Below the pieces are notes generated by a model. It did not search any database and had not been told where the DNA came from. It worked only from the letters and a program-made list of their open reading frames with translations. The translations under genes were made by a program, and so were the position numbers. Below are positions 44,965-63,546 of a stretch of DNA of 64,000 nt, one piece after another. The stretch is from a virus. Taxonomy: Duplodnaviria > Caudoviricetes. The DNA lies in the IMG/VR virus record IMGVR_UViG_3300011008_002750, positions 56,855 through 120,854 of that record; one strand, 5' to 3'. Numbering within the stretch: the stretch's first letter is position 1; every line of letters starts with the position of its first letter.

Positions 44965-45432
44965 ATGAAAACAGATTTTATTGATGTAACTGGAATTGAA
45001 TTCCAAGGAAAATTTGGTGATGATACTTGTAAAGGTATTGAGAAACCCGGAAAGTATATTATTCGTGTAATTGATTATAATTGGGTTAATGGAAAAGAAA
45101 ATTGTCTTAAAGATCCAGTATGGGGACCTATTGTTAAAAAGATGGATTCTCTTGAATATGGAACACCAGAATATAAAGAGGTAGAAGCACAATATAACAA
45201 ATTATTTGATGAAAAATTTGGTGTAGACAGTGGTGCATGGCTTCCAAAAGAAGTTGATATTATTGAAATTTATCAAATTGAAGGTGACGCGTCTGCTATT
45301 CATACTGCTGATAGGAAATGGTATTATTATAATGGAAATCATCGGTGCTTCAAGCCAATGTCTGCGGCAGAAGCTAAACAGGAATATGTTGATAAACTTA
45401 AATGGAATGATAATTTAAAACTTATAAAATAA
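44965..45432 (+). CDS. Hypothetical protein (paralog of 43173..43532)
   Basis: Start MKTDFIDVTG lies downstream of the promoter. Confidence 0.72.
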   Translation: MKTDFIDVTGIEFQGKFGDDTCKGIEKPGKYIIRVIDYNWVNGKENCLKDPVWGPIVKKMDSLEYGTPEYKEVEAQYNKLFDEKFGVDSGAWLPKEVDIIEIYQIEGDASAIHTADRKWYYYNGNHRCFKPMSAAEAKQEYVDKLKWNDNLKLIK

Positions 45433-45519
45433 ACTTTTTTCAAAAATAAAATATAATAAATAATAAAAGAAATAAATAATTAAATAAAAAGAATAAATAA
45501 TTAAATTACTATTAAAACA

Positions 45520-45710
45520 ATGATGAAGGGCTTTAAACATATGAGTAGTTTTGCATTTAGCAGCCTTAAAAAGGTGGCTAGCTGTAAATGGTTTGTGCTT
45601 GGAAGAGGAGTGATATAGTGATTTAAAGAACATACATTTTTAAAGATTATACATTTTTAAGGATTAGACATTTTTAAAGTTCTTTAATCACATAGATTAA
45701 GGAACTTTTA
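45520..45710 (+). promoter_or_regulatory. Leader uORF (ending TAG-TGA) plus terminator hairpin before tRNA cluster 1
   Basis: uORF 45520-45621; three acatttttaa repeats; hairpin aaagttctttaatc/gattaaggaacttt followed by a T tract. Confidence 0.5.
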
Positions 45711-45733
45711 ATTTTTTAATATATTGCTAATAT

Positions 45734-45823
45734 ATGTCGGTATGCAAGTTGGTTGAAGCACATAATCTCCAAAATTATTAGAATTTTAATATTCTCACGT
45801 GGGTTCGAATCCTACCCGGCATG
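45734..45823 (+). tRNA. tRNA-Trp(CCA) with a long variable arm
   Basis: ataat-ctccaaa-attat anticodon arm; GGTTCGAATCC T-arm; about 20-nt extra arm. Confidence 0.75.
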
Positions 45824-45848
45824 CAACAAATAAGATCTTTGAAATAAC

Positions 45849-45997
45849 GCGTTCGTAGCTCAGTCGGTTTTAGAGCATCTGACTTTCTAGTGATGAGAAC
45901 ACTAAAAAATCTCAGAGTTCATTATGGATGTATGTAAGTTCGATTCTTACATGAACTCCTAATCAGAGGGTCGTGGATTCGAGTTCCACCGGACGCA
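45849..45997 (+). tRNA. tRNA-Lys(TTT) with a 73-nt anticodon intron (45887-45959)
   Basis: Removing the insert restores tctga-cttttaa-tcaga and a canonical cloverleaf. Confidence 0.82.
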
Positions 45998-46011
45998 CAA
46001 AATATAAAATA

Positions 46012-46084
46012 GTCCCTTAGCTCAGTTGGTTAGAGTGCTTCCCTTACATGGAAAAAGTCGTAGATTCGAATTCTACAGGGACTA
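46012..46084 (+). tRNA. tRNA-Val(TAC)
   Basis: Cloverleaf; loop cttacat. Confidence 0.88.
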
Positions 46085-46122
46085 CAAATAAAAGCGAACA
46101 TTGAAATATTGATTTAATATAT

Positions 46123-46195
46123 GGACCAGTAGCTCAAATAGTAGAGCACATCCCTGAAGAGGATGGTGTAGGCGGGGCAGTACCGTCCTGGTTCG
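46123..46195 (+). tRNA. tRNA-Phe(GAA)
   Basis: catcc-ctgaaga-ggatg; variant T-loop ggcagta. Confidence 0.8.
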
Positions 46196-46275
46196 CAATT
46201 TAAAATTAAAGCGAACATACCATTTTTACCATAATTCCATAAATAAATATAATATAAAAAATAAGTATTATTAAA

Positions 46276-47217
46276 ATGGAAAATTTTAAATGTATTTGTG
46301 GTAAAGAATTTAATAATAAATTATCATTAGGTGGGCATAAAACATCTTGTAAAATATATTAGGAAGAAAAACAAAAATAGTTAAGTATTTTATAGGAAAA
46401 TGAAATTAATTATTAGTATATATGTAATTGCGGTAAACGATTTAAAACATAGAGTAGTTTAAATTCACATGCAAGATGGTGTGAACAATATTAGAAAAAA
46501 GATTTTTCATCAAAATATTTTAATAAAGAATTAAAAATTTTTAGATGTGAATGTGGTTTCGAAACAAATAAAGGTAATTCGATTAATGGTCATTTTTCAC
46601 GATGTAATATACATAGAGCAGCTATTGGTAAAGAATCGGCACCAATATATAAAAATTTAAAAATTAGTTAGTATAATTTTAAAAATCTTGATAAAGAGCA
46701 ATTATTAAAAATTTGTTATAAAGGTATTGAAAGCCAACGAAAAATGTATAAAACTGGAGAATTGGTTGGTTGGTGTAAAGGATTAACAGCTGAAACAGAT
46801 GAAAGAATTGCTAAAATAGTTCAAACTCAAAAAAGAAATGGTATAACTGGAGGTTATAGAGAAAATTCAGGAATATGCAAACATGGAAAATATAATGGAA
46901 TTCATTGCGATAGCACTTGGGAATTAGCTTATATTTTATATTGTAATGATAATAATATTCCAATAAAAAGATGTGATAAAGTATTTGATTATTATGATAA
47001 TGAAGGAAATAAACATCGATATTATCCAGATTTTATAATAAATGAAAATGAAATTATAGAAATTAAAGGTAGAATTACTGACTAGTGGAAATTAAAGCTT
47101 CCGATAGTTGAAAGAGAACATATAAAAGTTTTATATAAAGAAGATATGAAAGATATTTTAAATTATTGTTATGAAAAATATGGTAATGATTTAACATATC
47201 TTTATGATAAAAAATAA
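46276..47217 (+). CDS. Zn-finger + TnsA-like PD-(D/E)XK endonuclease in the tRNA cluster, 313 aa (TAG=Gln)
   Basis: Three CxCG..F...SL..H...C repeats; CDSTWE, RYYPDF, IEIKG. Confidence 0.82.
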
Positions 47218-47220
47218 TAT

Positions 47221-47306
47221 GACCGTATGTCCGAGTGTTCGAAGGTATGGCACTGCAAATGCCATTGGAGAAATCCGCATCGGGAGTTAGAATCTCTCTA
47301 CGGTCA
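47221..47306 (+). tRNA. tRNA-Cys(GCA) with a long variable arm
   Basis: tggca-ctgcaaa-tgcca; acceptor gaccgta/tacggtc. Confidence 0.75.
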
Positions 47307-47320
47307 CATATTAAATTATT

Positions 47321-47404
47321 GGAGATACCAACTGTCGAGGAGACGGGACCGCTTGCTAAGCGGATCGCACCTTCGGGTGTCCGGGTCGGAACCGGGGATC
47401 TCCG
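47321..47404 (+). tRNA. tRNA-Ser(GCT)
   Basis: ccgc-ttgctaa-gcgg, long variable arm, G73. Confidence 0.75.
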
Positions 47405-47416
47405 CAAAATAAATAC

Positions 47417-47497
47417 ACCCCAGTAGGCGAATAGGTATAGCCACATGCCTAAGGCGCATGGTTTAATTACGCGAGGGTTCGAGTCCCTCTTGGGGTA
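47417..47497 (+). tRNA. tRNA-Leu(AAG)
   Basis: catgc-ctaaggc-gcatg; type II body, A73. Confidence 0.8.
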
Positions 47498-47581
47498 CGA
47501 AAATAGTATTTAAGAGAGTAAAAATTTGAAACTTTGCTCTCTTTTTTCATATAATAAATAACAAAATTGTATATATAGACA

Positions 47582-48466
47582 ATGAATAAAAAGAATTTAT
47601 ACAATAAAATAATGAAATCGGTTTCAAAAGAAGTTAAAAAAACTTTAAATGAAGGTTTACCATTAGAACATTATAATGATGATTATGATGAAATTAATTA
47701 TATATTTGATTTAGATGAATTGCTAGATGATGAAAAAGCATTAAAATATTATGATAAATTTCCATTAAGATTTCTTAGTGCTAAGGTATTTGGTGGTCCA
47801 TTTATGCTTAATGAAGGAAAAATTGAATTACTAGAAAAAACTCCATCAAGAACGTATTCTATTGAAGAAGTTACAAAAGTTGGGAGATCATTATTAGGAT
47901 TAGAACCCGGCTGGATTAAAACACTAATTGCTGCAAATAAAATAGAAACATGTGTTTTAATATTAGATAAATTTGATAATGTTAATTTTATTATTGAAGG
48001 AATGAAAGCATTTGGCTGGACATTTTCATATGATGAAACCACAATTATGGATCAACATGTATTCAAATCATTGCATTTTGATCCAATGTTTCAAGATGTA
48101 GTAAATGAAGAAATTAAAAAATGCAGTTTATTGAAACACTGGACGCCATTTTATAATTTTAACAGTATTATGCAAAATGGATTGATACCGAAATCTAATA
48201 ATTTTATATTTTCATATCCACCTAAAATTCATTTAATTAAAGGAACTGCAGATAATTATGAAATAATGAATATTGGTGAGCAATTATGTCTTGCAAATAA
48301 AGACCCTCGAAATAATAGACATTATGTTTTGTTAAACATTAATGCAAAAGACTTATTAGATAAAATTGATTTCTTTTATGATCCTCGATATGAATGGGGA
48401 TATTATACAAAGCAGCCTATAGACAAACAATATATAACTAAAAATATGAATTATCATTTTGAATAA
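47582..48466 (+). CDS. Hypothetical protein with a possible Tpt1/KptA-like (ART-fold) C-terminus
   Basis: LKHWTP....SI...GLIPK...KIHL...VLLNI pattern; N-terminus MNKKNLYNKIMKSVSKEVKKTLNE. Confidence 0.6.
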   Translation: MNKKNLYNKIMKSVSKEVKKTLNEGLPLEHYNDDYDEINYIFDLDELLDDEKALKYYDKFPLRFLSAKVFGGPFMLNEGKIELLEKTPSRTYSIEEVTKVGRSLLGLEPGWIKTLIAANKIETCVLILDKFDNVNFIIEGMKAFGWTFSYDETTIMDQHVFKSLHFDPMFQDVVNEEIKKCSLLKHWTPFYNFNSIMQNGLIPKSNNFIFSYPPKIHLIKGTADNYEIMNIGEQLCLANKDPRNNRHYVLLNINAKDLLDKIDFFYDPRYEWGYYTKQPIDKQYITKNMNYHFE

Positions 48467-48485
48467 TAGAGGCTAAAAAATAAAG

Positions 48486-48525
48486 CTTCTATTTTTTATT
48501 TTGAAATATTTTTATTAATTTTGCA
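48486..48525 (+). promoter_or_regulatory. Promoter copy 6
   Basis: Same motif and spacing. Confidence 0.8.
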
Positions 48526-48548
48526 TTGTAATTAAAAATAATATAGTT

Positions 48549-48767
48549 ATGAGAATCTACACAGTTTCAAACGAACAAGGCTATCATGAAGAATTTTATA
48601 GTCTTCCAGCAGCTAAAAAGGCAATGAAAGAACACAATGCCAAAGGTTTTATTACTGCAGTTAGAAGCAATGGTGATTGGGAACCTATGGGAGAAATAAA
48701 ACTCAAAAGAAACAATGCATCAATGCTTGCAGGAGCAACAAAACAAACAATAAATAATTATAATTAA
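48549..48767 (+). CDS. Hypothetical protein
   Basis: 72-aa ORF after the promoter. Confidence 0.7.
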   Translation: MRIYTVSNEQGYHEEFYSLPAAKKAMKEHNAKGFITAVRSNGDWEPMGEIKLKRNNASMLAGATKQTINNYN

Positions 48768-48778
48768 AAATACTACAA

Positions 48779-49018
48779 TTGACAACAGAAGAAAGACTTG
48801 CTGCACGAGAGCAGCGTCGTAAAGAAGATCAACAATTTCGTGAAAATCTTATTGAAGAGATTGCTAATGAATATGATTTTGGTCGTGCAATAGCTAAAGC
48901 ATGTGTTGATAAAGGTTGGGAAGATGGACATGCATATGGTTATAGTGAAGTTAGAACACAATCTGAAATTGCAGCTGATTTCGCAGAGAAAATTCTTGCA
49001 ATTATTGGACCGGCATAA
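48779..49018 (+). CDS. Hypothetical protein (TTG start)
   Basis: WEDGHAYGYSEV motif. Confidence 0.7.
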   Translation: MTTEERLAAREQRRKEDQQFRENLIEEIANEYDFGRAIAKACVDKGWEDGHAYGYSEVRTQSEIAADFAEKILAIIGPA

Positions 49019-49037
49019 TTATGAAACTAAAAATAAT

Positions 49038-49703
49038 ATGAGTGAAGTTAGTCGATATTTCGAGAAACAAATTTTGCAGTTTGATTCATCTAAGGTGAAG
49101 ATATTCTTTACCTCAGATACTCACTGGAACCATACCAACATAATTAAATACTGTAAGCGCCCATTTGCTAATGTAGAAGAAATGGACGAGGTGTTAATTG
49201 AGAATTGGAATGCTGTTATTGGTTCAGATGATATTGTTTTTCATCTTGGTGATTTTGCATGGGGTGGTTCTGAAGTTTGGAATAATGTTCTTGATAGATT
49301 GAACGGACATATTTATTTGATTCTTGGAAATCATGATATGAAAAATTTGCGTCAAGAATATATTTCAAAATTTGAAGCAGTTGCATTTCAGATGTATATT
49401 TATATTGACGGACGCGCAGTTTATTTGAATCATTACCCATTCCTTTGTTATGGTGGATCATATCGCGGTGAGCAAGCTGTATGGCAATTATTTGGGCATG
49501 TACATTCTCAGCCACAACATTATAATATTGACGATATAAATGACCTAGAAGTGAAAGAAATTCTCGGTAAAGACACTTATAGACTTCAGTATTTGATGCC
49601 CACTCAGTATGATGTAGGTGTAGATAATAATAATTATAAACCTATTAGTTGGGAAGAAGTTAAAGAGAAAATTCAAAAACAAATTGAAGCAAGTGAAGAT
49701 TAA
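49038..49703 (+). CDS. Calcineurin-like metallophosphoesterase
   Basis: TSDTHW.H, HLGDF, LGNHD, NHYP, GHVH, DVGVD. Confidence 0.9.
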   Translation: MSEVSRYFEKQILQFDSSKVKIFFTSDTHWNHTNIIKYCKRPFANVEEMDEVLIENWNAVIGSDDIVFHLGDFAWGGSEVWNNVLDRLNGHIYLILGNHDMKNLRQEYISKFEAVAFQMYIYIDGRAVYLNHYPFLCYGGSYRGEQAVWQLFGHVHSQPQHYNIDDINDLEVKEILGKDTYRLQYLMPTQYDVGVDNNNYKPISWEEVKEKIQKQIEASED

Positions 49704-49743
49704 CTTCTATTTTTTAGTTTAAAGATAAAATATTATTTTTGCA
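49704..49743 (+). promoter_or_regulatory. Promoter copy 7
   Basis: Same motif and spacing. Confidence 0.8.
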
Positions 49744-49771
49744 TCATAATAATAAAAAATAAATACTAATT

Positions 49772-50464
49772 ATGAAAATAAAAAATCAAACTTTGATGTA
49801 TTTATATCGTCAAGAAAAATGTCTTGGCCGTGATAATGATAGTTGCTGTAATGTAGACGAAAATCATAAAATTCGCTATATTCTTTCACCATATGAGTTA
49901 AAACCAGATTATGGAAAGATGTATGCAGATATGAAAGAAAACAAAGAGATGACATATGATGATTGGTTTTCAAAAAATTGGTATCCGGTTTTTTCCAACT
50001 TTAATGCAAAAGATTGCAAAATAATCGAAGAAACATATTGTGATGGTTGGAACGGTTTATTTAATATGTTACCCGTATTAAATAATGATATGTGCGCAGA
50101 AGTTGTATTCACGACTGAATATGCGGCTGATATAGCAGATGATTATGTTGAAGAGATTCTTAAAAAACAAAAAGATGATATTAGAGATTTGTTAGATAAA
50201 ATTAATCATACTGCAACATATGAATGTTATGTTTTGAAACGTAGATTAGATGATGTTATGCTTGGATGGGAAAATGATATACCATTTTATGAGTTGGAGG
50301 ATGGTTATGTAAAATGGGATGTACATGGTAGAGCAAATGTAACACTGTTATTTGATAAAAATCTTTGTGATTTATTTGATGATAATACAGAATATGATGA
50401 AAATGGTGAATATGTTCCATATAAAGCAACGGTAACAATTTCAAGTAATATTAAAAGATTATGA
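49772..50464 (+). CDS. Hypothetical protein
   Basis: 230-aa ORF. Confidence 0.72.
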   Translation: MKIKNQTLMYLYRQEKCLGRDNDSCCNVDENHKIRYILSPYELKPDYGKMYADMKENKEMTYDDWFSKNWYPVFSNFNAKDCKIIEETYCDGWNGLFNMLPVLNNDMCAEVVFTTEYAADIADDYVEEILKKQKDDIRDLLDKINHTATYECYVLKRRLDDVMLGWENDIPFYELEDGYVKWDVHGRANVTLLFDKNLCDLFDDNTEYDENGEYVPYKATVTISSNIKRL

Positions 50465-51249
50465 AAAAGCGAAGTAAAGATAGTCTCGGTGATCGCATGA
50501 AGCGATATGAGGCAGTAAGTAAAACTTCATTAGTTCAAAGAATGCCAGTTATTCTTCGTCTTGATGGATGTCATTTTCATACATTTACTAAAGGATTTGC
50601 AAAACCTTTTGATGATGTAATGATTAAATCTATGCAAGATACAATGAAATATTTGTGTGAAAATATTCAAGGTTGTGTATTTGGATATACGCAATCGGAT
50701 GAAATCACCCTTGTATTGGTTGATTATAAAAATTTGAATTCAAGTCAATGGTTTGATAATGAGGTTCAAAAGATGTGTTCAGTTGCAGCATCAATGGCAA
50801 GTATGCATTTTAACAAATGTTTTGCATATAATGCAATAAATGCAGGAAATGAAGAAGAATTGTTTAAAAAACACTGGGATGCATTTACTAAACATGGAGC
50901 ATATTTTGATTGCCGTGCATTTAATGTTCCTAAAGAGGATGTTTGCAACTGTATACTTTGGCGGCAGCAAGACGCGACAAGAAATTCAATTCAATCACTG
51001 GCACAATCTCAATTTTCTCAAAAACAAATGCACGGTTTAAGTTGTAATATGTTGCAAGATAAATTGATGGTTGAAAAAGGAATTAACTGGAATGATCTAG
51101 ATACTGTTAAAAAACGTGGTTCTGCTTGTATTAAAAATTATTATACAGAAAATGTAAAAACACGTTCTAAATGGGTTATTGATTATAATATGCCTATTTT
51201 GTCACAAGACAGAAATTATGTTGAACAATTTGTAATATTGTCAGATTGA
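50461..51249 (+). CDS. thg1: tRNA(His) guanylyltransferase / Thg1-like 3'-5' polymerase
   Basis: RMKRYE, RLDG.HFH.FT, YTQSDEI, FDCR, WRQQDA.RNSI, GINWN, KRG. Confidence 0.93.
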   Translation: MKKRSKDSLGDRMKRYEAVSKTSLVQRMPVILRLDGCHFHTFTKGFAKPFDDVMIKSMQDTMKYLCENIQGCVFGYTQSDEITLVLVDYKNLNSSQWFDNEVQKMCSVAASMASMHFNKCFAYNAINAGNEEELFKKHWDAFTKHGAYFDCRAFNVPKEDVCNCILWRQQDATRNSIQSLAQSQFSQKQMHGLSCNMLQDKLMVEKGINWNDLDTVKKRGSACIKNYYTENVKTRSKWVIDYNMPILSQDRNYVEQFVILSD

Positions 51250-51364
51250 GGTAATTTTTTAAATATAACTAAATAATTTTTCACAGAAAACAATTTGTTG
51301 TTTTTGGGTTTTTATTTTGGGGTATTGAAATATAGTTTAATAAACATTAAAAATATTAAAAATT

Positions 51365-51592
51365 ATGAAAAAAATTATGGCATTTGTAGTAAGAAATGAA
51401 GATGGAATGCTAAATTTAGTTATGGGTGCTACACCATATAAACTTAATATCCACGGAAATGGATATTGGGCAATTCCTGATAATCAAATCGAAAATTGTT
51501 ATATTGAAGAAATTCAAAATGATAAATTTCCTCAAGTCAAATGGGAAGATGCAGAACCAACTAAAGTTGAATTAACAATTAAAATAAAATAA
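51365..51592 (+). CDS. Hypothetical protein
   Basis: FPQVKWED.EP.KVEL motif. Confidence 0.7.
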   Translation: MKKIMAFVVRNEDGMLNLVMGATPYKLNIHGNGYWAIPDNQIENCYIEEIQNDKFPQVKWEDAEPTKVELTIKIK

Positions 51593-51594
51593 TT

Positions 51595-51873
51595 ATGGAA
51601 AAGAAACTTTTACATTCTGATGAAGAGTATTTTGCTTATTGTGAGCAAGAACAAATTGGTTATATATCTAGACAATATGGGTCTCAATGTTGCGATATTG
51701 AGAATGGCGCTGAATGTCATAATGGTGCTACACTTTATAAAGGAACTAGTTATGAAGAATACTTAAAATTTGATAGTAAACCGTCTCATTATCCATGCAT
51801 ATTAGTGTATTATGATGGACTTGATGATGTAATTCGTGGTATGTTTATTTATCCTGAAGATTTTGAAGATTAA
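51595..51873 (+). CDS. Hypothetical protein
   Basis: 92-aa ORF. Confidence 0.7.
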   Translation: MEKKLLHSDEEYFAYCEQEQIGYISRQYGSQCCDIENGAECHNGATLYKGTSYEEYLKFDSKPSHYPCILVYYDGLDDVIRGMFIYPEDFED

Positions 51874-51875
51874 TT

Positions 51876-52070
51876 ATGACGCAATTTGATAAAGGCTGGT
51901 GGAATTGTTTTAATTCATTTGCCAATAATACAATAAATGACAATGATTCTATTTGTATGGAGGTTCTAAATGGAGCCGGTGTAACAAAGGATGAGGTTGA
52001 AGAAGTATTGCGTAATGGTGATTTATATGGAAATGCATTAAATATTATATATGAATATATAAGAAATTAA
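51876..52070 (+). CDS. Hypothetical protein
   Basis: 64-aa ORF in the operon. Confidence 0.68.
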   Translation: MTQFDKGWWNCFNSFANNTINDNDSICMEVLNGAGVTKDEVEEVLRNGDLYGNALNIIYEYIRN

Positions 52071-52072
52071 TC

Positions 52073-52873
52073 ATGAAACGTTTAGTTATAGGTGACATAT
52101 ATGGACATTGGGATGGATTCAAAAAGATTTATGATCTTGAAAATCCTGATGAGGTTATAATGCTTGGAGATTATTTTGATAATTTTCATGGTTCTGATGA
52201 CAGTATATATGAATGTTATCGGGATATTCTTGATTTGCGTGGTGAACATCTTGCTTTGAAAAAAGGAGATTTTAAGATGTTAATTGGCAATCATGATTTT
52301 CATTATAATCACTGGTTTGAGAAATGTTCAGGGTATCGTTCATCTATGGCACGTAAGAATGCACTTATTTTGAATAATTATTCTCAACATTTACAATTTG
52401 TTTATGTCGATGAAATAAACAATACTATATATTCTCATGCAGGTGTAACAAATACTTGGTTAAAAGAGAATTTAGGAGACAAATATGATAAAGATTCATA
52501 TTTGTTTATTAATGAAATGAATCACCAAGCATTCAAATTTACTTATAAAGGCGGGGGCGATATGTATGGAAACACAATATATGCAAGTCCTATTTGGTGC
52601 CGGTCTCGTTCTTTGAATGAAGATAGTTTAATTAATAAAGATGGTGAGAAGATGGTTCAGATAGTTGGGCATACTCATAGTCAGACACCAATTTGTTATG
52701 ATTTTAATGGTTATGAAATGCCTACACAAGATGAAGATGGAATCAAATTAGTAAATGAACATTTTGAAGATGTTAAAATATATATAATAGATACGATGCC
52801 TAATTATTACATGGTTGAAGAATTAGATGATGATAGGAAATTAGTAAAACGTGAAATTAAACAATTAAAATAA
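52073..52873 (+). CDS. Calcineurin-like metallophosphoesterase (second)
   Basis: IGDIYG, LGDYFD, IGNHD, SHAG, VGHTH. Confidence 0.88.
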   Translation: MKRLVIGDIYGHWDGFKKIYDLENPDEVIMLGDYFDNFHGSDDSIYECYRDILDLRGEHLALKKGDFKMLIGNHDFHYNHWFEKCSGYRSSMARKNALILNNYSQHLQFVYVDEINNTIYSHAGVTNTWLKENLGDKYDKDSYLFINEMNHQAFKFTYKGGGDMYGNTIYASPIWCRSRSLNEDSLINKDGEKMVQIVGHTHSQTPICYDFNGYEMPTQDEDGIKLVNEHFEDVKIYIIDTMPNYYMVEELDDDRKLVKREIKQLK

Positions 52874-52912
52874 TTTTCATTATAATTTATAAAACTTTAA
52901 TTTTTTACAATT

Positions 52913-53536
52913 ATGGGATATGAAGTTCATTTTAAAGGAATGTCCAATGAAGTAATGGACAAATATAATAAGAAAAATAAAGGAATATATGGTTTTTCTT
53001 CTAATGGAGAATATAGGCTTTCTTTGAAAGTTTATACTTTAATGCCTCCAGAAACCCAAGAAAAATTAAGTAGAGTTCCAGATGTTAAGAATGCAGTTTT
53101 TAATATTAAACTTTATCTTGCCGGGCTTGAAAATGAAATTAATCAATCTGAGGAACAATTTGCATATGACAGGTGGAAAGAAGATGGCAAACTCTGGTAT
53201 TGTGGCTGGGAATATTCACATGATTATTGTAATCATACTAAAGAAGAGATTTATGATTATGTTGTTGAAAGATTAACTATTCTTAAATTCTGTGCAGAAA
53301 CTGGAGATTATTTTGATTCTGAAAGTCATTTTGATGATAAGGCCAGGGATATTGACGATATTCTTACATATTTTGAAGATATGATGAGAGAAATCAAGAT
53401 TTATGAAATTATGAATGACCTTAAAGATTATAGAGTTGGAGATGATGAAGATGAAGATAATGCTTATGAAACACATGCCACACAAGAATTATCCGATAAA
53501 AAGAGGGTGGAAATATCAGAAACACCAGAAAAATAA
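52913..53536 (+). CDS. Hypothetical acidic protein
   Basis: 207-aa ORF. Confidence 0.72.
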   Translation: MGYEVHFKGMSNEVMDKYNKKNKGIYGFSSNGEYRLSLKVYTLMPPETQEKLSRVPDVKNAVFNIKLYLAGLENEINQSEEQFAYDRWKEDGKLWYCGWEYSHDYCNHTKEEIYDYVVERLTILKFCAETGDYFDSESHFDDKARDIDDILTYFEDMMREIKIYEIMNDLKDYRVGDDEDEDNAYETHATQELSDKKRVEISETPEK

Positions 53537-53613
53537 ATAAAATAAATAATTAGAAGAAAATAAACTTTTTTCTAAAAATAAATAAAATAAATAATAAAAT
53601 TAAAAAATAATAA

Positions 53614-53797
53614 ATGCAAAATTATAGAGAACATAGTATGATGATTAATACAATTGGTGAACAACGTCCATCAACAGAACAACCATCTGTACTTTATAAT
53701 GATGCCAATTATTAGCTGAAGAGGTAAACCCTAATATCAGGAAACACAATATATAAAAGAAATTCCTTGGGTTTACAATAAACTCAAGGAATTTTTA
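53614..53797 (+). promoter_or_regulatory. Leader uORF (TAG four codons before TAA) plus terminator before tRNA/ncRNA region 2
   Basis: uORF 53614-53727; hairpin aattccttgggttta/taaactcaaggaatt followed by a T tract. Confidence 0.5.
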
Positions 53798-53821
53798 ATT
53801 AAAAAATAAAACAAAATTTAA

Positions 53822-54059
53822 CTTCTATTTTTTAGTTTAAGAAAAAAGTTGTAATTTTGCATTACCAAATTAAAAAAGAGTGTTCTTTAACAAATTGAAA
53901 TAAAGGTTTATTATTCCACTTGAGTTCTGGGAACTTATATGATAAGCGCACAATAAAATCATATTTGGGTGGCAGGTTCGAATCCTGAGTAAACCTCAAA
54001 AAAATAAAGCAAAATTTAACTTCTATTTTTTAGTTTAAGAAAAAAGTTGTAATTTTGCA
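53822..54059 (+). promoter_or_regulatory. Tandem duplicated promoters (copies 8 and 9) driving the RNA region
   Basis: Identical ~50-bp blocks; motif starts at 53822 and 54020. Confidence 0.8.
53903..53997 (+). ncRNA. Degenerate tRNA-like element
   Basis: aggttta/taaacct terminal stem and caggttcgaatcctg T-arm; no clear anticodon arm. Confidence 0.45.
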
Positions 54060-54386
54060 TCGTCATTCAAAAAAATGACAAAGTGATATTTGAAATTTTT
54101 ATTAACTTTTTTGAAAAAGAAAATAAACTTTTTTGAAAACTGTTATATAAAATAATAAATGATAATTGCAAAGAAATTTGCATGAAACATTTAAATGCGA
54201 TCCTTGACGTATTGAGATTAAAATTAAAGAAAGAAATTATTTTTCTATTTAAAGAAATTTAAATGGAAGTCAAATATATTTCGTATCAGTAATTTCTCCT
54301 GTGAAGGTGTTTATACTGATACAAAAGCCGCAACGCTTTGACACAACAAGCGTCACCCTTAAGGGATTAGGAGTTGAGTCGTAATT

Positions 54387-54501
54387 GGATGCGTGAAGCA
54401 GATGGCATGTGCTACTGGAGAAAATCTAAATCGTTTAAACCTCTAATGAGGGAGATAAGGAGAAGTAACAGGCTATGTAGGTTGGAATCCTACTGCATCC
54501 A
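54387..54501 (+). ncRNA. tRNA-like RNA with an expanded central region
   Basis: ggatgcg/tgcatcc acceptor, gtagg-ttggaat-cctac T-arm; no canonical anticodon loop. Confidence 0.5.
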
Positions 54502-54592
54502 CTTTATCAACATAAAACAGAAACATAGATCGAGGTATTAATTGGGAAAAATGACAAAGATCTAAACAGAAATATATTGTTGATATAAAATT

Positions 54593-54749
54593 GTAACCGT
54601 AGTCAAGTGGCCAACGACAGCAGACTGTTTAGTGAATAAAACACTAAAAAATTGAAGATGATATAGTAATGGCTGTAAATAAGTTCGAATCTTATATATC
54701 ATCCTAATCTGCCCCGAAAGGTTCGCAGGTTCGAATCCTGCCGGTTGCG
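54593..54749 (+). tRNA. tRNA-Asn(GTT) with a 76-nt anticodon intron (54629-54704) and a long variable arm
   Basis: Removing the insert gives gcaga-ctgttaa-tctgc; G73 favours Asn over Tyr. Confidence 0.72.
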
Positions 54750-54750
54750 C

Positions 54751-54876
54751 GAGGAAGAATGGTGGTTCAAATCCATCACATATTAGCAGAGTTCAAAACT
54801 CATTAAACTTGGTTAATTGCTAATATTGTAGTTTAGAATTGGTTGTAAAACATCCGTAGTAGGTCCTGGTTTCTTT
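54751..54876 (+). ncRNA. Permuted tRNA-like RNA (T-arm precedes D-arm)
   Basis: ggtgg-ttcaaat-ccatc, then acatattagca/tgctaatattgt stem, then gttt-agaattggttgta-aaac. Confidence 0.45.
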
Positions 54877-55210
54877 AGTGGGGATAAAATTCCATGGCGC
54901 AAACAAAAAGACGAAACTCCACACATTTTCCAGGTAACGCTGGTGGTACATCTATAAGCTTTGAATTGAAAACGCTGAAGCACCAATGTAGGTTGGTAGA
55001 ACCGAGGCCGTAACTCGGATAGATGGCAAAATAGTTAAAAGAAAACAATTTAGAAAGGTCGAGGAATCTCTATTTGTACAAATTGGCATTACGTCACCAG
55101 ACAATATTTGTTGAGGCTCTGAATAGGTCGCTCCTTGGAAGTAGGGGAATTGAGAATACAAATAGCGGGAGAAAGGTAGACTCGTGGGCTGGTTCGCTCT
55201 CCCAATTTTA

Positions 55211-56300
55211 TAGTTGAAGGAAAACAACTTGCCAAATCCTTATTAATTATTTATAAAAACCGCAGGCTCTGGTTGTTGATGATGTAAAATCTAATAAGTC
55301 TGACCTATGGCGCTAATCCTGAAATGATTATTAAGTCAGAGAGTAATCTAAAGTTAGTTTTAAGGTGACTAACATCTTAGTTGAAGGAAAACAACTTAAA
55401 TAAACCTAATTTACTCCTATCGTCTAGTGGTTTAGGACGCTCCCGGGTGGTAACATCAGTTCGAATCTGATTGGGAGTTCTTAGTTGAAGGAAAACAACT
55501 TAAAAAATCTGGCAGAAAACACACAGAGAACTGCATTAGATTAAATTAAATTACTCGTGTTGCGGAGGGAGAAAGCCTCATTAAATAACGAACACTTCAA
55601 AGAGTCTGAGGGCAACCGTGGGCTGTAAGTTTCTTCCTTATAGGGTTCTAGATAATCTATAAGTTTCTTTAACGGGAGCGGAAATAGTTGAAGGAATACA
55701 ACTATAAAAACCATAAGAATCTACCACTTGCACAAGGTAATGAAAAGGAATAGTCGTAATTAATTTAAGAAGTGCGTAAATTAAATTAGGTGGATATATT
55801 TTAACTATAAGAAGGAAAAACTTTATAACCAATTATTAACATACACATAGCGTCGCAACCGCGTCAAGAACGTTAGTTCTGTGTTGAAATAGAGGCATTG
55901 CATGGTAGACAGTAAGTCCTTCGTGTTAATAATTACTATAAGAAGGAGAACTTAATAATCTTCAAAACAACGCCGGTGATTGCTATGATAACCTAGTGGG
56001 TGGTTCCCGCTTCCGGCTCTAATAAGAAGGAAAACTTAAAAACCCAGTTATATGAAGTAGTCAAATTCGTATCGCTTGACCTGAGGTTCTGCCTTGGTAG
56101 TTTAATGAATGATATAAAACATCATATAACCAAAACAATAGTTGAAGGAAAACAACTTAAATAAACCCAGCAACCTTCTATCATTTGATGATACAGTAGG
56201 AGTAATTGTATAGAGTAGTAATAGCACGATGTATCATATGAGAGAGATGGTGCGTGGCTCTCACACTTATAGTTGAAGGAAAACAACTTTAAAAACCCAT
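55211..56300 (+). repeat. Array of 9 hairpin repeats (TAGTTGAAGGAAAACAACT-A-tract-CC and the TAAGAAGGAAAACTT variant) separating unique structured segments
   Basis: Copies start at 55211, 55378, 55482, 55685, 55806, 55937, 56021, 56139 and 56270; an outlying copy at 58377 and a degenerate copy at 55032. Confidence 0.9.
55413..55479 (+). ncRNA. tRNA-Glu-like RNA lacking the anticodon loop
   Basis: actccta/tgggagt acceptor, gtct-agtggttt-aggac D-arm, atcag-ttcgaat-ctgat T-arm; ctccc joins gggtg directly. Confidence 0.7.
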
Positions 56301-56664
56301 TGGCAGTTGAGGGTAATACACTGTACAAAGGACAAGTTGAATGTGAGATGGTCCCAGAAAGTTGACAGACACACAAGACTTTCAAATATACTTATTTTTA
56401 ATTACATAAATTATAGATTGATTGAGTAAAAATTAATCGACTACATTGACGATAGTTTTTCAATAAGGGGGGTAAATTCAAGACAATTTATTTAGGATTG
56501 TCTAAGTAGAATTTATTGCAGTCGGCTGTTGAAAAAACTCGTAGCTTTACCACCGGATTTTTTGTTGTAGAAGACGGGCTTTATAGAATTAGAAAGCGCA
56601 GATTAATTTTTTAAGATTTCTTTTTCAGATTTTCTTTAGCTGATTAAAGTAAAATCTGAAATTT

Positions 56665-56736
56665 GCACCATTAGTATAACGGTTATTATACATGATTTGT
56701 AATCTTGAGATCCTGGTTCGATTCCGGGATGGTGCT
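56665..56736 (+). tRNA. tRNA-Thr(TGT)
   Basis: Loop tttgtaa; cloverleaf. Confidence 0.88.
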
Positions 56737-56952
56737 CAAAATATTTTTCTTCGGGTTTTATATTGTGATTTAAGACGCCATATTGTTAGACGAAACTAAA
56801 ATTATAAAAACTTGGACGTAATAAAAGATTGAACGATAAGCAAAACTTGCCTCAGTGAGTAACCAAATCGAGGAGTAATTAACCACGATTTCTGAGAGCA
56901 CGGATTATTCATACCTGGCCAGGTGGATAATTGAAAGGTTACATTTTTATAT

Positions 56953-57026
56953 TGCCCTGTAGCTCAACTGGCTAGAGCGTCTGATTTTGGTTCAGAAGGT
57001 TGGGGATTCGAACTCCTCCAGGGCAA
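56953..57026 (+). tRNA. tRNA-Gln(TTG)
   Basis: tctga-ttttggt-tcaga; U1 start. Confidence 0.85.
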
Positions 57027-57106
57027 CAAAATTAATTGCATAAAGGAGTTCCTATTTTATTTAATTGCAAATTAAACTTACCATACTTCTCGCGATTAAT
57101 CTAAAT

Positions 57107-57181
57107 TGTCTTGTATATCAGCCTGGTTAGATTGTCATCCTGATAAGATGAAGGTCGTTGGTTCAAATCCAACCAAGACAA
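57107..57181 (+). tRNA. tRNA-Ile(GAT)
   Basis: tcatc-ctgataa-gatga. Confidence 0.88.
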
Positions 57182-57244
57182 CAAAATTGAAAAAATTATT
57201 TTTTAGTTCGAAATAAATATAATATAAAGTAATTCGAACTAATT

Positions 57245-58039
57245 ATGGAAAGCGTTAAAGGAAGTAAAAGAAAATATCATATTTTTTATAAAATAACAAA
57301 TAATATAAATAATCATTTTTATTATGGCGTACATAATACCGATAATATAAATGATAATTATATGGGTTCTGGAAAAAGATTATAGTATGCATATAAAAAA
57401 TATGGTATGGAAAATTTTACAAAGGAGAATTTAAAATTTTTTGATACTGCTAAAGAGGCATTTGAATACGAAGCTGATTATATAACAGAAGAATTAATTA
57501 AAGACCCTAATTGTTATAATATTGAAGGTGGAGGTAAAGGTTGGAATACTATTAATTAGGTATTAGTAAAAGATAAAGATGGAAATACATTTTTAATATC
57601 TAAAAATGATTAGCGATATTTAAATAAAGAATTAGTTAGTGCTTATAAGGGATATATATGTTGTAGAAAAAAAGGTGAAACTGAATTTTGTTGGATACCA
57701 AAAGAATTATACAATAAAAATGAATATGAAACCACATCATCGAATAATGTACCTGTAAAAGATAAATCTGGAAAATTTTATTTAGTATCTAAAGATGATC
57801 CACGATATTTAAATGGTGAATTAGTATCAATTTGGAAAGGTAAACATCATAAAGAAGAATCTAAACAAAAAATGCATAATACATTTTTAAAAATACATCA
57901 TTAGCAAGGCGAAAAAAATTCTCAATTTGGTACATGTTGGATTCATAATGATGAAGAATCTATTAAAATAAAGAAAGAACAATTAGAAGAATATATTTCT
58001 AATGGTTGGGTAAAAGGAAGAAAAATGTTTAAAAAATAA
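57245..58039 (+). CDS. GIY-YIG (Seg-like) homing endonuclease, 264 aa (TAG=Gln)
   Basis: IFYKITNNINNHFYYGVH...YMGSG...KKYG.ENF.KE...YNIEGGG; C-terminal GTCWIHN...GWVKGR. Confidence 0.88.
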
Positions 58040-58043
58040 TTAT

Positions 58044-58117
58044 AGGGTAGTAGTTCAATTGGTTAGAATGCTAGTTTTGGGAACTAGTGGTTGGGGAATC
58101 GTGCTCCCCCTACCCTA
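58044..58117 (+). tRNA. tRNA-Pro(TGG)
   Basis: ctagt-tttggga-actag. Confidence 0.82.
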
Positions 58118-58176
58118 CGAATTAAATAATTAAAAAACAATTAGTTATAAAATTTACATAAACTAACAGATTAAAT

Positions 58177-58291
58177 AAATCATGAGATACCGGTTCGAAT
58201 CCACATCGCGCAGAAGCATTTAGTCAGACTTCCAAGTGATAGTTGGCCTGAAATTGGTCTTAGAACATAAATGGACTAAAACACATGATTT
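58177..58291 (+). ncRNA. Possible permuted tRNA-like RNA
   Basis: aaatcatg/catgattt closing stem; GGTTCGAATCC first, ggcc-tgaaatt-ggtc later. Confidence 0.4.
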
Positions 58292-58554
58292 TAATTTTTA
58301 TTTCCAAAGTACACGGAGATAGTAATGGAGACGATGCGAGTGGTACTCCATGTTAAAAACAAAAGTCACTTACAAATAGTTGAAGGAAAACAACTATAAA
58401 AACCAGTTAATTAACTTTAATCTTGAAGGTGGTAGAGTAACCTTACAAAGCATATCTAGTAGACTCGGTTGAAGTATGCCAGGAGAGATGATAGAAGCCT
58501 AGGCTCTCAAATTTTTTGAAACTTTTTAATAATATAAGATATAATAATTAAAAT

Positions 58555-58625
58555 GGCGGGTTCGTATATCGGTAGTACTCAAGATTTTCATTCTTGCAAG
58601 AGGGGTCCGACTCCCCTACCCGCTA
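58555..58625 (+). tRNA. tRNA-Glu(TTC)
   Basis: caaga-ttttcat-tcttg. Confidence 0.85.
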
Positions 58626-58767
58626 CAACTAATTGATAATCAATCAGTTATAAATTTACAATTCAACGATTACTATATGTAAGTTCGGGATTTGGATGGG
58701 CACTACCAAATGGACGGAGAACCGCGTGCATTCGAGATTGGTGACAATACGGAGAGACGTATAATAA

Positions 58768-58841
58768 TGGAATGTAACTCAGTCGGTCAGAGTTCGAAGC
58801 TTATACCTTCGCGGTCGGGGGTTCAAGTCCCTCCATTCCAA
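58768..58841 (+). tRNA. tRNA-Ile(TAT)
   Basis: cgaag-cttatac-cttcg; canonical D- and T-arms. Confidence 0.85.
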
Positions 58842-58952
58842 CGTGAAAGGCTGTAGTGTTGGTTTTATTAGTTTTTTGTCAAAATGCAGTAACCTCCATA
58901 TCGTGCGAACAAATAATATGGTCAGGACAAAACATGAAAACTAATTTTATAT

Positions 58953-59033
58953 TGCGTGGTGTCAGAAGCTGGTATCTGGGTGGGCTCATAACCCACTGCG
59001 TAAGCCTCGGAGGTTCGAGTCCTCCCCACGCCA
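58953..59033 (+). tRNA. tRNA-Met(CAT), initiator-like
   Basis: gtggg-ctcataa-cccac (three G-C pairs), unpaired first position, extended variable loop. Confidence 0.8.
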
Positions 59034-59125
59034 CAAATTAGCTTAAAAATGGATAGTTCAATTTTTATTTCCACAACTTAAATAAATATAATATATTAAT
59101 ATATAAAAATAATTTATATTTAATT

Positions 59126-60022
59126 ATGGGAAATTGTAAATATTGTAATAAAGAATTTAAAAATGTTAAAAACCACGAAAAACATTGTAAATTAAATCCA
59201 GATTATGATAAAATTGATCATTCATATTTATCTAGAAATGGTGCTAATACATATCGTTATTTAGGTAAATTACGTGCTATAAATACACAAAATAACATAC
59301 ATGAACATCAAATTATTTGTGCAAAATGCGGAAAAGAATTTTCAGTAATAGTAAGCGACAATAATTTCAATAAAGGAAAATATAAACATTTTTGTTCACG
59401 AAGTTGTGCAAATTCTCATGTTGTATCAGATTAGACAAAAGAAAAAATAAGTAAAGGAGTTATACATAAAATATACGGGTCAAAAGAAAAACAAGAGGAA
59501 CATAAATTAAAAACGTGTGCTTGTTGTGGAAAATAGTATAGACCAACGTCATTAAGTAAATTTTGTAGTACAGACTGTAAAAATATTAGTATACATAATA
59601 AAATTATATCAGATGAAACTAGACAAAAATTATCAGAAGCTGGTAAGCATTCTGCAAAAGTTCAATCAGAAATACGACGTTCAAAAAATGAAATGAAATT
59701 TTGTACATTATGCGAGCAATATTTTAATAATGTAGAACATAATAAATCAATATTTAATGGTTGGGATGCAGATGTAATAATACATGATATAAAATATGCA
59801 ATTTTATGGAATGGCCCATGGCATTATAAAAAACTTAATAAAAAACATTCTGTAGAACAAGTACAAAATAGAGATAATATTAAAATTAATGAAATAATAA
59901 AATATGGTTACACGCCATATATTATTAAAGATTTAGGTAAATATAAAGAATCATTTGTACAAGAAAAATTTGATGAATTTTTAGAATTTTTAAAGAAAAA
60001 AGAGATAGAGGCCCATGTCTGA
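59126..60022 (+). CDS. Multi-Zn-finger Vsr-like endonuclease, 298 aa (TAG=Gln)
   Basis: CKYC, CAKCG, FCSRSCANSH; RRSKNE...GWDADVIIHDIKYAILWNGPWHY. Confidence 0.8.
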
Positions 60023-60170
60023 AACGACTTGTAGGTTCGAATCCTACTCATGGTGTTTCACTTTGAATGTTATATTTAATAAATTTATAAATGTTGCAAC
60101 ACTTTCTAATTAATAACATTCTTTAAGAAGTGGATCCTACTGTGATGGCGAAACAGGTAAACGCGTGGGT
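60011..60170 (+). ncRNA. Circularly permuted tRNA-Leu-like RNA
   Basis: The 3' half (variable arm, T-arm, tcatggt) precedes the 5' half (actgtga, D-arm, gtgggt); the halves are complementary in both acceptor and anticodon stems. Confidence 0.68.
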
Positions 60171-60376
60171 AAGATTGTTGTTGGCTATAACAACATTAAA
60201 TAAATATAGTACCTTTAACTAATATATTAGGTCAGACGCTAAATATATTCCTTAAATGAAAAGCAAAGTATTGAGTAATAGAATACATGAGGGTTCGGAC
60301 CCTGGAGTAGAAATCGACCAAAAAATGCATATAGTTATATGGGTGCAACTCCCATAATAATATTTTAGTTAATAAT

Positions 60377-60445
60377 GACATCATCGTATAGTGGTTATTA
60401 TTGGGGACTGTCTCTCCTCGGACCAGAGTTCGAATCTCTTCACTC
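60377..60445 (+). pseudogene. tRNA-Asp(GTC) lacking its 3' acceptor strand
   Basis: D-, anticodon (ctgtctc) and T-arms are present, but gacatca has no partner after the T-arm. Confidence 0.6.
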
Positions 60446-60662
60446 GCTCCAGGATATAGCACAGATACGGGGTTGATGAAAACAATCATTAGTAGTTGCG
60501 GGACGCCAATATGAAACGGTTTGTTGGATTCTAAAACATGAAAGTTATGGAAGCAGAGATGGTTGCAAACATTGAGGTGGAAATGCAGATGTATGTAAAT
60601 AGGGCGCTCTCAGTGGTGGGAGAGGTCGGAGAACAACCCGTAAAAACTTCTATCCTGACCAT

Positions 60663-60734
60663 GCCCTTGTACGCTAACGGACAAACGAGGTGGCTACGAA
60701 CCACCCATTCCCCGTTCGAATCGGGGCGGGGGTA
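60663..60734 (+). tRNA. tRNA-Arg(ACG)
   Basis: ggtgg-ctacgaa-ccacc. Confidence 0.85.
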
Positions 60735-60797
60735 CTAATAAATAAACAATTTCAATTTAATGTAATAAAATAATTGAAATAATAAATTATATTAAAA

Positions 60798-61328
60798 ATG
60801 AAAATTGATTCATTAGAGAGCATTTGGGATAACTTAGGATATGTTATTCAAAAATATGGTGGTTTTAAGAAAACACAATTTCACCCAAGAAAGTTAATTT
60901 ATAATTGTGCACCAAAAAGAATGAAAGATGGATCTGTGAAAAATACTTTTATTGAAGTTGGATATCTTTATTTAACAAGTGCAGTTAAAGATGATTCTCA
61001 ATGTAATATTTGGTTTGATTGTACTGACCATATTAATTATGATAAAGAACATAAAATTATATTTCCGACAATGTCTGAACAGTTTTGGGATAAAATTGTT
61101 AGAAAGCATAATTCAAATATTGCGCAAATTTATAATAATTCAACAAAAGAAGATTTTAATATAACATGGAGTACTATAAAAGGACAAGCATTATTTACGA
61201 CAAGAAAAGAAGCCGAGGATTATATTAAGCAATGTGAAAATGGTAAAGTTGAGCTTTCTGAATTCTTTTTAAAGGTTGAAAAAGTTATAACAAACCCAAC
61301 ACCAGAAGATTATGAAAATATAAAATAA
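60798..61328 (+). CDS. Hypothetical protein
   Basis: 176-aa ORF. Confidence 0.72.
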   Translation: MKIDSLESIWDNLGYVIQKYGGFKKTQFHPRKLIYNCAPKRMKDGSVKNTFIEVGYLYLTSAVKDDSQCNIWFDCTDHINYDKEHKIIFPTMSEQFWDKIVRKHNSNIAQIYNNSTKEDFNITWSTIKGQALFTTRKEAEDYIKQCENGKVELSEFFLKVEKVITNPTPEDYENIK

Positions 61329-61350
61329 AAAATAAAAACTAATTAGAAAC

Positions 61351-61815
61351 ATGAGAAAATTTTTATTTATTGCACTTGCAATTATTAGCAGTATGGTATT
61401 CACTTCATGTGGAACTCAATTTGGTTTGGTTTATGGCGTTCAGCTTACAGGTGATGGAGATGGACAATTTGAAGTAACTTTTCCACAAGGTTCTTATGAA
61501 ATGAATGGTAAAGCAGCTCTTGCATTGAATGTAGGTGATTCTGTATTGTTTAATGATACAACTGCTAAGGTTGCATACAAGAATGATGTTCTTCTTCGTG
61601 GTAATAAGGATGAAATTGAAGCAATGCGTCGTGTAAATGATTCTATTGCAAATCAATTTAATACTTTTGACGGTGAAGGAACATATGATATTTGGCTTAA
61701 AGGTTTTGTCAAAGAAATTGGATCTGGTTTGGTATTCTCAGTTGACAGACATTTTACAAATCGTGTAAAAGGAGTTCGTAAGAACGATAATGATCTTTAT
61801 CCATTTATTCAATGA
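61351..61815 (+). CDS. Putative lipoprotein
   Basis: Signal peptide with an FTSC lipobox. Confidence 0.78.
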   Translation: MRKFLFIALAIISSMVFTSCGTQFGLVYGVQLTGDGDGQFEVTFPQGSYEMNGKAALALNVGDSVLFNDTTAKVAYKNDVLLRGNKDEIEAMRRVNDSIANQFNTFDGEGTYDIWLKGFVKEIGSGLVFSVDRHFTNRVKGVRKNDNDLYPFIQ

Positions 61816-61858
61816 TTTTGAAATTGGTTATATCATTTAAGGTAAACCAATTTGAAAT

Positions 61859-62011: not shown

Positions 62012-62197
62012 CAATAACATTGCTTCATTGCAATCGGTTTATCACTTGACGAAACAAAGTGACGTTCACCAGCTGATTCGACAAATATAGTTGGCTAAAA
62101 GAAAACCGAGCACAGGTGTCCGACATTAGTGACGGTTAAGTTAAGCTGCAGATTACTTAGCAGTATCTAATGAGAAGATTCGTTAATTCTTCACCGT

Positions 62198-63535: not shown

Positions 63536-63546
63536 CAATTGTTAAA

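Follow-up and report, generated by a model that had tools for sequence, protein, structure and literature searches.

Short introns in phage tRNA genes have been described in the Lak megaphages, where they lie in the anticodon loop and were called 'enigmatic': they are near-identical across genomes, intron-less alleles exist, one 'may encode a tRNA', and the genomes have large stretches of intergenic sequence with high expression (Devoto et al. 2019, PMC6784885). The tRNAs of recoded gut phages are adjoined by theta ribozymes, a minimal form of the hepatitis delta virus (HDV)-like class (PMC10879173). Here we analysed 64,000 nt of a phage genome (positions 56,855-120,854 of IMG/VR record IMGVR_UViG_3300011008_002750; hereafter the window, whose numbering is used throughout), which form the 3' half of a 121-kb record estimated to be 24% complete. 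The phage is large, AT-rich (~27% GC) and TAG-recoded, with in-frame TAG codons in many long open reading frames (ORFs), the TAG stop codon being read as an amino acid. Its window holds tRNA genes interrupted by introns of the 'enigmatic' Lak type, a type that is itself not new, and an array of small RNAs separated by a repeat; introns and repeat alike begin with a short hairpin. We tentatively favour, at somewhat less than an even chance, the reading that one architectural boundary module takes two sequence forms here, the intron hairpin and the array repeat, and their likeness suggests one common RNA-boundary signal in a phage tRNA splicing route. Such a module would consist of a short hairpin with a purine- or A-rich loop of 7-9 nt, followed by a single-stranded A5-6 tract. 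It would mark the upstream edge of small structured RNAs, often tRNA-shaped, in a lineage of TAG-recoded large phages, the bounded RNAs lying either head to tail in a non-coding array or, as mobile introns of 71-120 nt, in tRNA anticodon loops.

Interrupted tRNAs and the small-RNA array

The anatomy of the two elements, the intron boundaries, the covariation of the stems and their distribution are established. Between 45.7 and 63.6 kb the window holds 13 ordinary tRNA genes and four interrupted ones (A to D, Table 1), each with an intron of 73-77 nt in the anticodon loop. A common plan is seen in all four: the hairpin begins 0-1 nt past exon 1 and is followed by an A5-6 run and a single-stranded leader of 11-12 nt, then by a helix of 12-13 bp whose first base is G and which ends 1-2 nt short of exon 2. 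This helix bears a TTCGAWT loop in introns A and B and is thus an acceptor/T-arm mimic; read directly from the sequences, about five of the seven pairs of its acceptor-like part have both bases replaced between A and B yet still pair, and the homologue of intron A in the close relative L046 shows a compensatory T-stem change. Introns C and D are 89% identical over 54 nt. In the predicted fold, seen for tRNA B, the anticodon stem meets the 5' hairpin and the 3' helix in a three-way junction.

Since the exons of the intron-bearing tRNAs are conserved, the insert must leave the RNA. All four introns are flanked by CT..|..TAA, and a 35|36 junction makes A a Lys-UUU and C an Arg-UCU tRNA; the D-arm of A matches an intronless tRNA-Lys(TTT) in the relative G004. 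The boundaries of B are set by the relative L002, which has an intronless homologue with near-identical exons, a 76-nt indel and the anticodon loop CTGTTAA. This loop identifies B as Asn(GUU) with its 76-nt insert at 35|36 or 36|37, and the intronless allele places the 5' intron edge 0-1 nt before the hairpin. Near-identical copies of tRNA B are present in L066 and L226.

Other tRNA-like pieces lie nearby. An isolated tRNA 5' half (acceptor strand and D-arm; 62228-62262) stands directly upstream of an endonuclease-like ORF, and no matching 3' half was found. Two RNAs at 53900-53997 and 54387-54508 have a paired acceptor-like stem and a T-arm around a non-tRNA interior of ~60-90 nt, and are recognised by neither ARAGORN nor Rfam.

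The main array lies within an ORF-free stretch of 2.5 kb (54.15-56.65 kb) in which GC is raised above the genome mean. Its canonical repeat, TAGTTG-AAGGAAAA-CAACT, occurs seven times on the + strand of the whole record and never on the - strand, co-oriented with the tRNA genes. Three variant-stem copies (TAAG...CTTA, near 55806, 55938 and 56020) keep the tail and the loop AAGGARAA, and a decayed copy lies at 55031. An earlier note on this DNA had counted 14 hairpins, and all are present on the + strand: four in introns and ten in the array (seven canonical, three with variant stems). The sequences that it quoted need some correction. The intron form, TAGTG-AATAAAA-CACTA followed by A6, is exact at 54630 and 61898, with loop ATGAGAA at 45888 and the 9-nt loop AACAAAACG at 63422; the array form was given a closing A after CAACT, which is found in only two of the seven canonical copies (55685 and 58377), the other five having T.

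Scans of IMG/VR and metagenomes recovered the repeat in ~45 contigs of up to 498 kb. The 108 distinct copies, all in the same orientation as the tRNA genes, have the consensus A|TAGTTG-loop-CAACT-T-W-AAAWAA-(C/A)CC, and 96 of them carry A at -1; the repeat measures ~32 nt in all, and CC stands at a fixed distance. Loops vary (AAGGAAAA, AGGGACAA, AATGCAA, AAATAAA and others). The stem is near-invariant; rare copies have CAAG/CTTG or TAAG/CTTA in place of AGTTG/CAACT with loop and tail constant, the two strands of the stem covarying. A trans RNA complementary to loop and tail was looked for in the phage's own record and none was found. The units between repeats measure 84-450 nt, are structured and are conserved among phages, yet they are gained or lost between close relatives. 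In genome G003, a unit that is elsewhere preceded by the hairpin module is preceded by a tRNA, which suggests that tRNA and hairpin module act as interchangeable punctuation. One conserved unit starts TAGTGGGTGCAACACTT-ATAAATATGCAAC (L226:7216, L231:795, L236:3232 and six further loci; also L004:4925); this TAGTG...CACT start is an intron-type stem at an array boundary.

The fixed sequence of the repeat could also be read as a hairpin-type promoter for a phage RNA polymerase ahead of each small RNA: ~32 nt are strongly conserved with CC at a fixed distance, always upstream of a unit. The module is nevertheless also located inside tRNA introns, its stems covary, the would-be start is CC, and promoters of the sigma-70 kind (TTGAAA-N18-TATAAT) already lie upstream of the tRNA and non-coding RNA clusters. 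We rejected this reading as extremely improbable. An intrinsic terminator was rejected as well, the hairpin being followed by an A-run, not a T-run, and a terminator scan reporting none at any repeat.

Likeness of the two hairpins

We described the shared architecture as a 4-6 bp Watson-Crick stem with at least two GC pairs, a loop of 6-9 nt that starts with A and holds at least four A's and at most two pyrimidines, and an AAAAA run within 9 nt. Over both strands of the window (128 kb) this descriptor matched eight sites, all on the + strand, namely the four intron hairpins and four array hairpins, and none on the - strand, against a chance expectation of 0.85 per strand (Markov shuffles); the nominal probability is to be discounted heavily, as the descriptor was tuned after both families had been seen. 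In ~170 kb of relatives nearly all of its matches were array repeats, and its strict form was present at the intron start of 11 of 20 intron tRNAs, versus 5.8% of background windows. That the two hairpins share a rare architecture, and that each has a small structured RNA whose upstream edge it forms, is borne out. The likeness is further supported by the array cassette at 55378-55481, because it has the layout of an intron: hairpin, 15-nt leader and tRNA-like RNA (Table 1). Homologues of this cassette exist in L002 and L242. The RNA that it contains (55413-55479), with homologues in the same two relatives, resembles tRNA-Glu, having acceptor, D and T arms and no anticodon arm; its retention in several phages argues that it is probably functional.

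Intron tRNAs found with ARAGORN in relatives and metagenome contigs fall into ~8-9 classes, nearly all of which begin with a hairpin and an A-rich tail, and all introns close with a tRNA-like helix of 12-13 bp, 1-2 nt before exon 2. A Thr class opens with TAGTGAG-AAGAAAA-CTCACTA then AATAATAAA, this identical 5' module standing on two different 3' bodies; a Pro class with TAGTGTC-AGAGAA-GATACTA then AAAATTAAAC; and a Met class with TTCAG-ACAGTAA-CTGAA then AAATAAAAC. The Met intron of G002 (TAATG-TGATAAG-CATTA) shows a G-C to A-T change relative to TAGTG/CACTA. Altogether, the intron stems covary (TAGTG/CACTA, TAATG/CATTA, TAGTGAG/CTCACTA, TAGTGTC/GATACTA, TTCAG/CTGAA). The class found in Glu and Gln tRNAs, GTTGG-AAAGAAAA-CCATAC then TAYTAAAAAC, combines the loop and tail of the array repeat with another stem; together with TAGTGAG/CTCACTA it bridges the two families, in agreement with the likeness first noticed.

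Several points, beyond the tuning of the descriptor, weigh against a single module. A covariance model built from 28 array copies missed all four intron hairpins at E <= 10, and those of relatives too; its matches were the seven array copies, at 44-57 bits, and one variant (56019, E 0.011). When gapped alignments to the array consensus were ranked, the intron hairpins fell outside the 40 best windows. The tails differ, the array's ending in CC and the introns' in T, and the array stem hardly varies among phages whose GC ranges over 27-41%, a constancy that suggests a sequence-specific recognition which the intron stems would not meet. Only ~4 of 108 distinct array repeats follow a tRNA-like 3' end, and a terminal helix closes just 12 of 31 array units. 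No array unit is homologous to an intron body, and the notion that the introns are array cassettes was rejected on this ground. The complete genomes G003 and G005 carry array repeats and no hairpin-type intron tRNA, and searches of the 121-kb record, at its 24% completeness, yielded neither an endoribonuclease nor an RNA ligase. The earlier note had further placed both hairpins immediately 3' of a needed cut; this stands for the introns and for the copy at 55482 (2 nt past the discriminator base, 55479) and does not hold for most array copies.

These results could mean that the hairpins are look-alikes with separate roles, the intron hairpin being a structural part of a mobile tRNA-shaped intron and the array repeat a sequence-specific handle or spacer for another factor. 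The intron hairpin might then insulate the anticodon loop or keep an RNase P leader single-stranded, and the likeness would reflect the constraints that 27% GC places on hairpins in general. Consistent with this, neither the covariance model nor the alignment links the two, the array stem is invariant in ~100 copies where intron stems vary freely, and the hairpins are thermodynamically unremarkable, being weak alone (-2.9 to -4.9 kcal/mol, z-scores +0.4 to -3.0). Yet the descriptor matches nothing else in 128 kb, the bridging intron classes bear the array loop and tail, and the array cassette has the same layout as the introns; we consider separate roles somewhat unlikely.

A further hairpin of this kind belongs to a candidate circularly permuted type-II tRNA at 60011-60200, whose 3' half precedes its 5' half, with an 84-nt linker between the two. 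About 6 nt after the 5' half comes TGTTGT-TGGCTATA-ACAACA then TTAAATAAAT, an array-like hairpin with an A-rich tail; aligned to the array consensus, it is one of the better-scoring sites outside the array.

A ~71-nt intron, 93% identical, sits at 34|35 in Glu-UUC (L004:2279-2422) and in Gln-UUG (L199:6533-6676, L248:2013-2154); its presence in different tRNAs of different phages indicates that the introns are mobile and go to a CAGATTT^T-like target. Between phages of 80-94% identity the arrays differ in content, blocks being gained or lost at repeats; BLAST end-points of these blocks cannot assign a repeat to either neighbour, the repeat itself being shared. The hairpin might accordingly be a DNA-level element, the edge of a mobile cassette (a recombination, transposition or homing site), in place of an RNA signal, and the homing-endonuclease-like ORFs between the tRNA genes would fit this. 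We regard it as very unlikely: the conserved exons require the insert to be removed from RNA, the orientation is strictly that of transcription, and recombination at repeats suffices for the rearrangements, with no dedicated function required.

The two elements also differ in range. The TAGTG hairpin form is confined to two close relatives; the array repeat is present in each of the five records that are more distant. Their presence in G003 and G005, which lack the introns and the Tpt1-like gene described below, implies that the array signal is independent of the splicing context.

Table 1. Interrupted tRNA genes, array elements and RNA-related protein genes in the window.
Feature	Coordinates	Strand	Details
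tRNA A, probably Lys-UUU	45849-45998	+	73-nt intron 45887-45959; 5' hairpin 45888-45904 and A-run; tRNA-like helix ~45915-45958
tRNA B, Asn-GUU	54593-54750	+	76-nt intron 54629-54704 (or shifted by 1 nt); 5' hairpin 54630-54646 and A6; tRNA-like helix ~54657-54703
tRNA C, Arg-UCU or Gly-UCC	61859-62012	+	77-nt intron 61897-61973; 5' hairpin 61898-61914 and A6; 7+5 bp helix stopping 2 nt before exon 2
Degenerate tRNA-like gene D	63390-63537	+	Intron 63421-63497, C type; 5' hairpin 63422-63440
Main array	55211-56297	+	Canonical repeats at 55211, 55378, 55482, 55685, 56139, 56270; ~20 nt each plus tail WAAAAACC; no ORFs
Isolated seventh canonical repeat and tail	58377-58404	+	
Array cassette with intron layout	55378-55481	+	Hairpin 55378-55397; 15-nt A-rich leader; tRNA-like RNA 55413-55479; 2 nt; next hairpin
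ORF with Tpt1/KptA- or DarT-like ADP-ribosyltransferase fold	47582-48466	+	AlphaFold2 (AF2) predicted local distance difference test (pLDDT) 80; Foldseek Tpt1 E 1.5e-5, probability 1.0
Metallophosphoesterase	48798-49703	+	PF00149 at 9.6e-11; phrog_547
Thg1-family 3'-5' nucleotidyltransferase	50461-51249	+	PF04446 at 4.3e-32; common in phages
Second metallophosphoesterase	52073-52873	+	PF00149 at 2.6e-11

Neighbouring genes and a possible processing route

The RNA-enzyme genes that the earlier note had named near the array are there: Pfam matches identify Thg1 and the two metallophosphoesterases, and Foldseek on the AF2 model supports a Tpt1/KptA-like fold for the fourth ORF, matching several Tpt1 structures with DarT1 next. 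This ORF has a weak profile match to an HGT...GL motif and no Pfam match, PF01885 included. The catalytic tetrad of Tpt1 is Arg-His-Arg-Arg. Among 23 homologues of the phage protein no Arg is invariant, only R269 being nearly so, and an R-H-R-R tetrad is not evident. A Pfam-level search of the 121-kb record (24% complete) found no Tpt1, EndA, RtcB, Rnl2-type or T4 Rnl1-type ligase. The ORFs at 49772-50464 and 52913-53536 gave no lead in Pfam, PHROG, PDB sequences or the Atlas, and the AF2 model of the former (pLDDT 76) had no Foldseek match.

The earlier note had gone on to propose that a single phage endoribonuclease or RNA-binding protein reads both hairpins, with Thg1, the metallophosphoesterases and the Tpt1-like protein healing the ends. 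In favour of this, the RNA-end-modifying genes lie between the two tRNA and non-coding RNA clusters, and the Tpt1-like family occurs in two genomes with hairpin-type introns (G000 and G004) and was not found in two complete genomes that lack them (G003 and G005). Array repeats, however, persist in G003 and G005 without introns or Tpt1-like gene, and the healing enzymes therefore cannot be common to both contexts. Moreover, L046 has intron A with no Tpt1-like ORF at this locus, the family lacks the invariant arginine, and no nuclease, Cas6-like protein or RNA ligase was detectable in the partial record. A single enzyme of this kind seems quite unlikely.

A boundary module common to both contexts could work as follows. 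In the introns, module and A-rich tract would form a leader of 10-19 nt before the acceptor/T-arm-like helix of 12-13 bp, and this helix, which with its A-rich leader resembles an RNase P/RNase Z substrate, would be cut on either side by those two host enzymes or another enzyme of the ruler type. Exon 1 would still bear hairpin and leader after these cuts. The remaining cut would then fall at the hairpin foot, which lies 0-2 nt past exon 1 in the introns and corresponds in the array to A|UAGUUG, where the same position would be the cassette edge too; it could be made by a structure-guided endonuclease, or by 3' exonucleases loading on the A-tract, and a ligase would join the exons. Pairing is possible between the tract's first A's and U-rich bases just upstream (for introns the U's of the anticodon loop, for the array UUA), and it would place the boundary in the lower stem. 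The fullest version of this route, in which splicing is neither self-splicing nor archaeal, RNase P and Z excise the tRNA-shaped core, a hairpin-guided nuclease trims exon 1, a ligase seals, the Tpt1-like protein removes the 2'-phosphate and the same nuclease dices the array (as in CRISPR-style repeat processing without CRISPR), we judge unlikely.

To our knowledge, no case has been described, in bacteria or in bacterial viruses, of tRNA introns being spliced in a protein-dependent way, and Lak-type phage tRNA introns have, as far as we know, gone unexplained since 2019. Most introns of this lineage share a fixed plan, a hairpin, an A-rich leader and a tRNA-like helix flush with exon 2, and the module that opens them also punctuates an array whose small RNAs are conserved (108 distinct copies, ~45 contigs), which together give a concrete, testable processing model with defined substrates. 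If one factor does read both contexts, tRNA supply in code-switching phages would be linked to the production of a set of small RNAs.

Two further features accompany the clusters. Zinc-finger/endonuclease-like (homing-endonuclease-like) ORFs lie between the tRNA genes at 46276-47217, 57245-58039, 59126-60022 and 62310-63320; these four contain 3-8 in-frame TAG codons each, against none or one in the adjoining RNA-enzyme genes, and this load suggests code-dependent, late expression. A 77-nt intergenic repeat (AACTTCTATTTTTTAGTTTAAG ... TTTTGCAT), at 48465-48541, 49683-49759, 53801-53877 and 53999-54075, is placed after several genes and small RNAs and is probably a terminator/promoter block.

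Comparison with known systems

Searched with Rfam at gathering scores and at E <= 5, the region 45000-64000 yielded tRNAs alone, and at the nucleotide level no GenBank phage matched the array, the repeat or the intron. Archaeal and eukaryal bulge-helix-bulge introns and group I tRNA introns resemble those studied here in their anticodon-loop location (junctions here are 34|35 to 37|38). A bulge-helix-bulge consists of two 3-nt bulges at the splice sites, with a 4-bp helix between them, and is cut by EndA. The introns here show a three-way junction instead, PF01974 (EndA) was not found in the partial record, and this class was rejected. Group I introns have a conserved catalytic core, P3-P8, and usually exceed 200 nt; at 73-77 nt in the window and 71-120 nt overall the present introns are too short, and there is no Rfam group I match in this region at E <= 5, so a group I origin was rejected as well.

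A CRISPR array has short unique spacers and is served by a Cas6-family nuclease. The phage array is similar in its ~32-nt repeat, its small hairpin with conserved stem and its A-rich 3' tail of ~8 nt, which punctuate a long precursor. It differs in that the 'spacers' are structured RNAs of 84-450 nt conserved among phages, and searches of five records for Cas6, Csy4 and CasE (PF01881, PF09618, PF08798) gave none at cut-off, one 12.7-bit match below it being ignored; a CRISPR array or Cas6 substrate was rejected accordingly. In tRNA punctuation and in 3'-end formation of the MALAT1-mascRNA type, which depend on RNases P and Z, tRNA-like helices embedded in a longer RNA would likewise define the cuts, with an A-rich tract just upstream. 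Here, in contrast, the tRNA-like element lies inside a tRNA anticodon loop and ligation must follow, and the hairpin loop is A-rich and hence offers no U-rich partner for a triple helix.

Theta ribozymes are comparable in that they too are cis elements of TAG-recoded phages placed at a tRNA boundary, where they are proposed to release an RNA end (PMC10879173). The conserved module here is only ~30 nt long and lacks an HDV-like core. Self-cleaving ribozymes of the HDV-like/theta, hammerhead, twister, pistol and hatchet families were rejected, with no Rfam match in 45000-64000 at E <= 5. Finally, the Lak introns are of the same type as those found here. At the nucleotide level this phage does not match the Lak phages in GenBank, and a 5' hairpin, A-tract, array repeat or splicing route is not described for them (PMC6784885). 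What the two have in common is short anticodon-loop introns in the tRNAs of large, AT-rich, TAG-recoded phages, near-identical introns and intron-less alleles; in the present lineage an intron-less allele is found in L002 relative to tRNA B (the 76-nt indel), and the intron itself contains an acceptor/T-arm-like helix.

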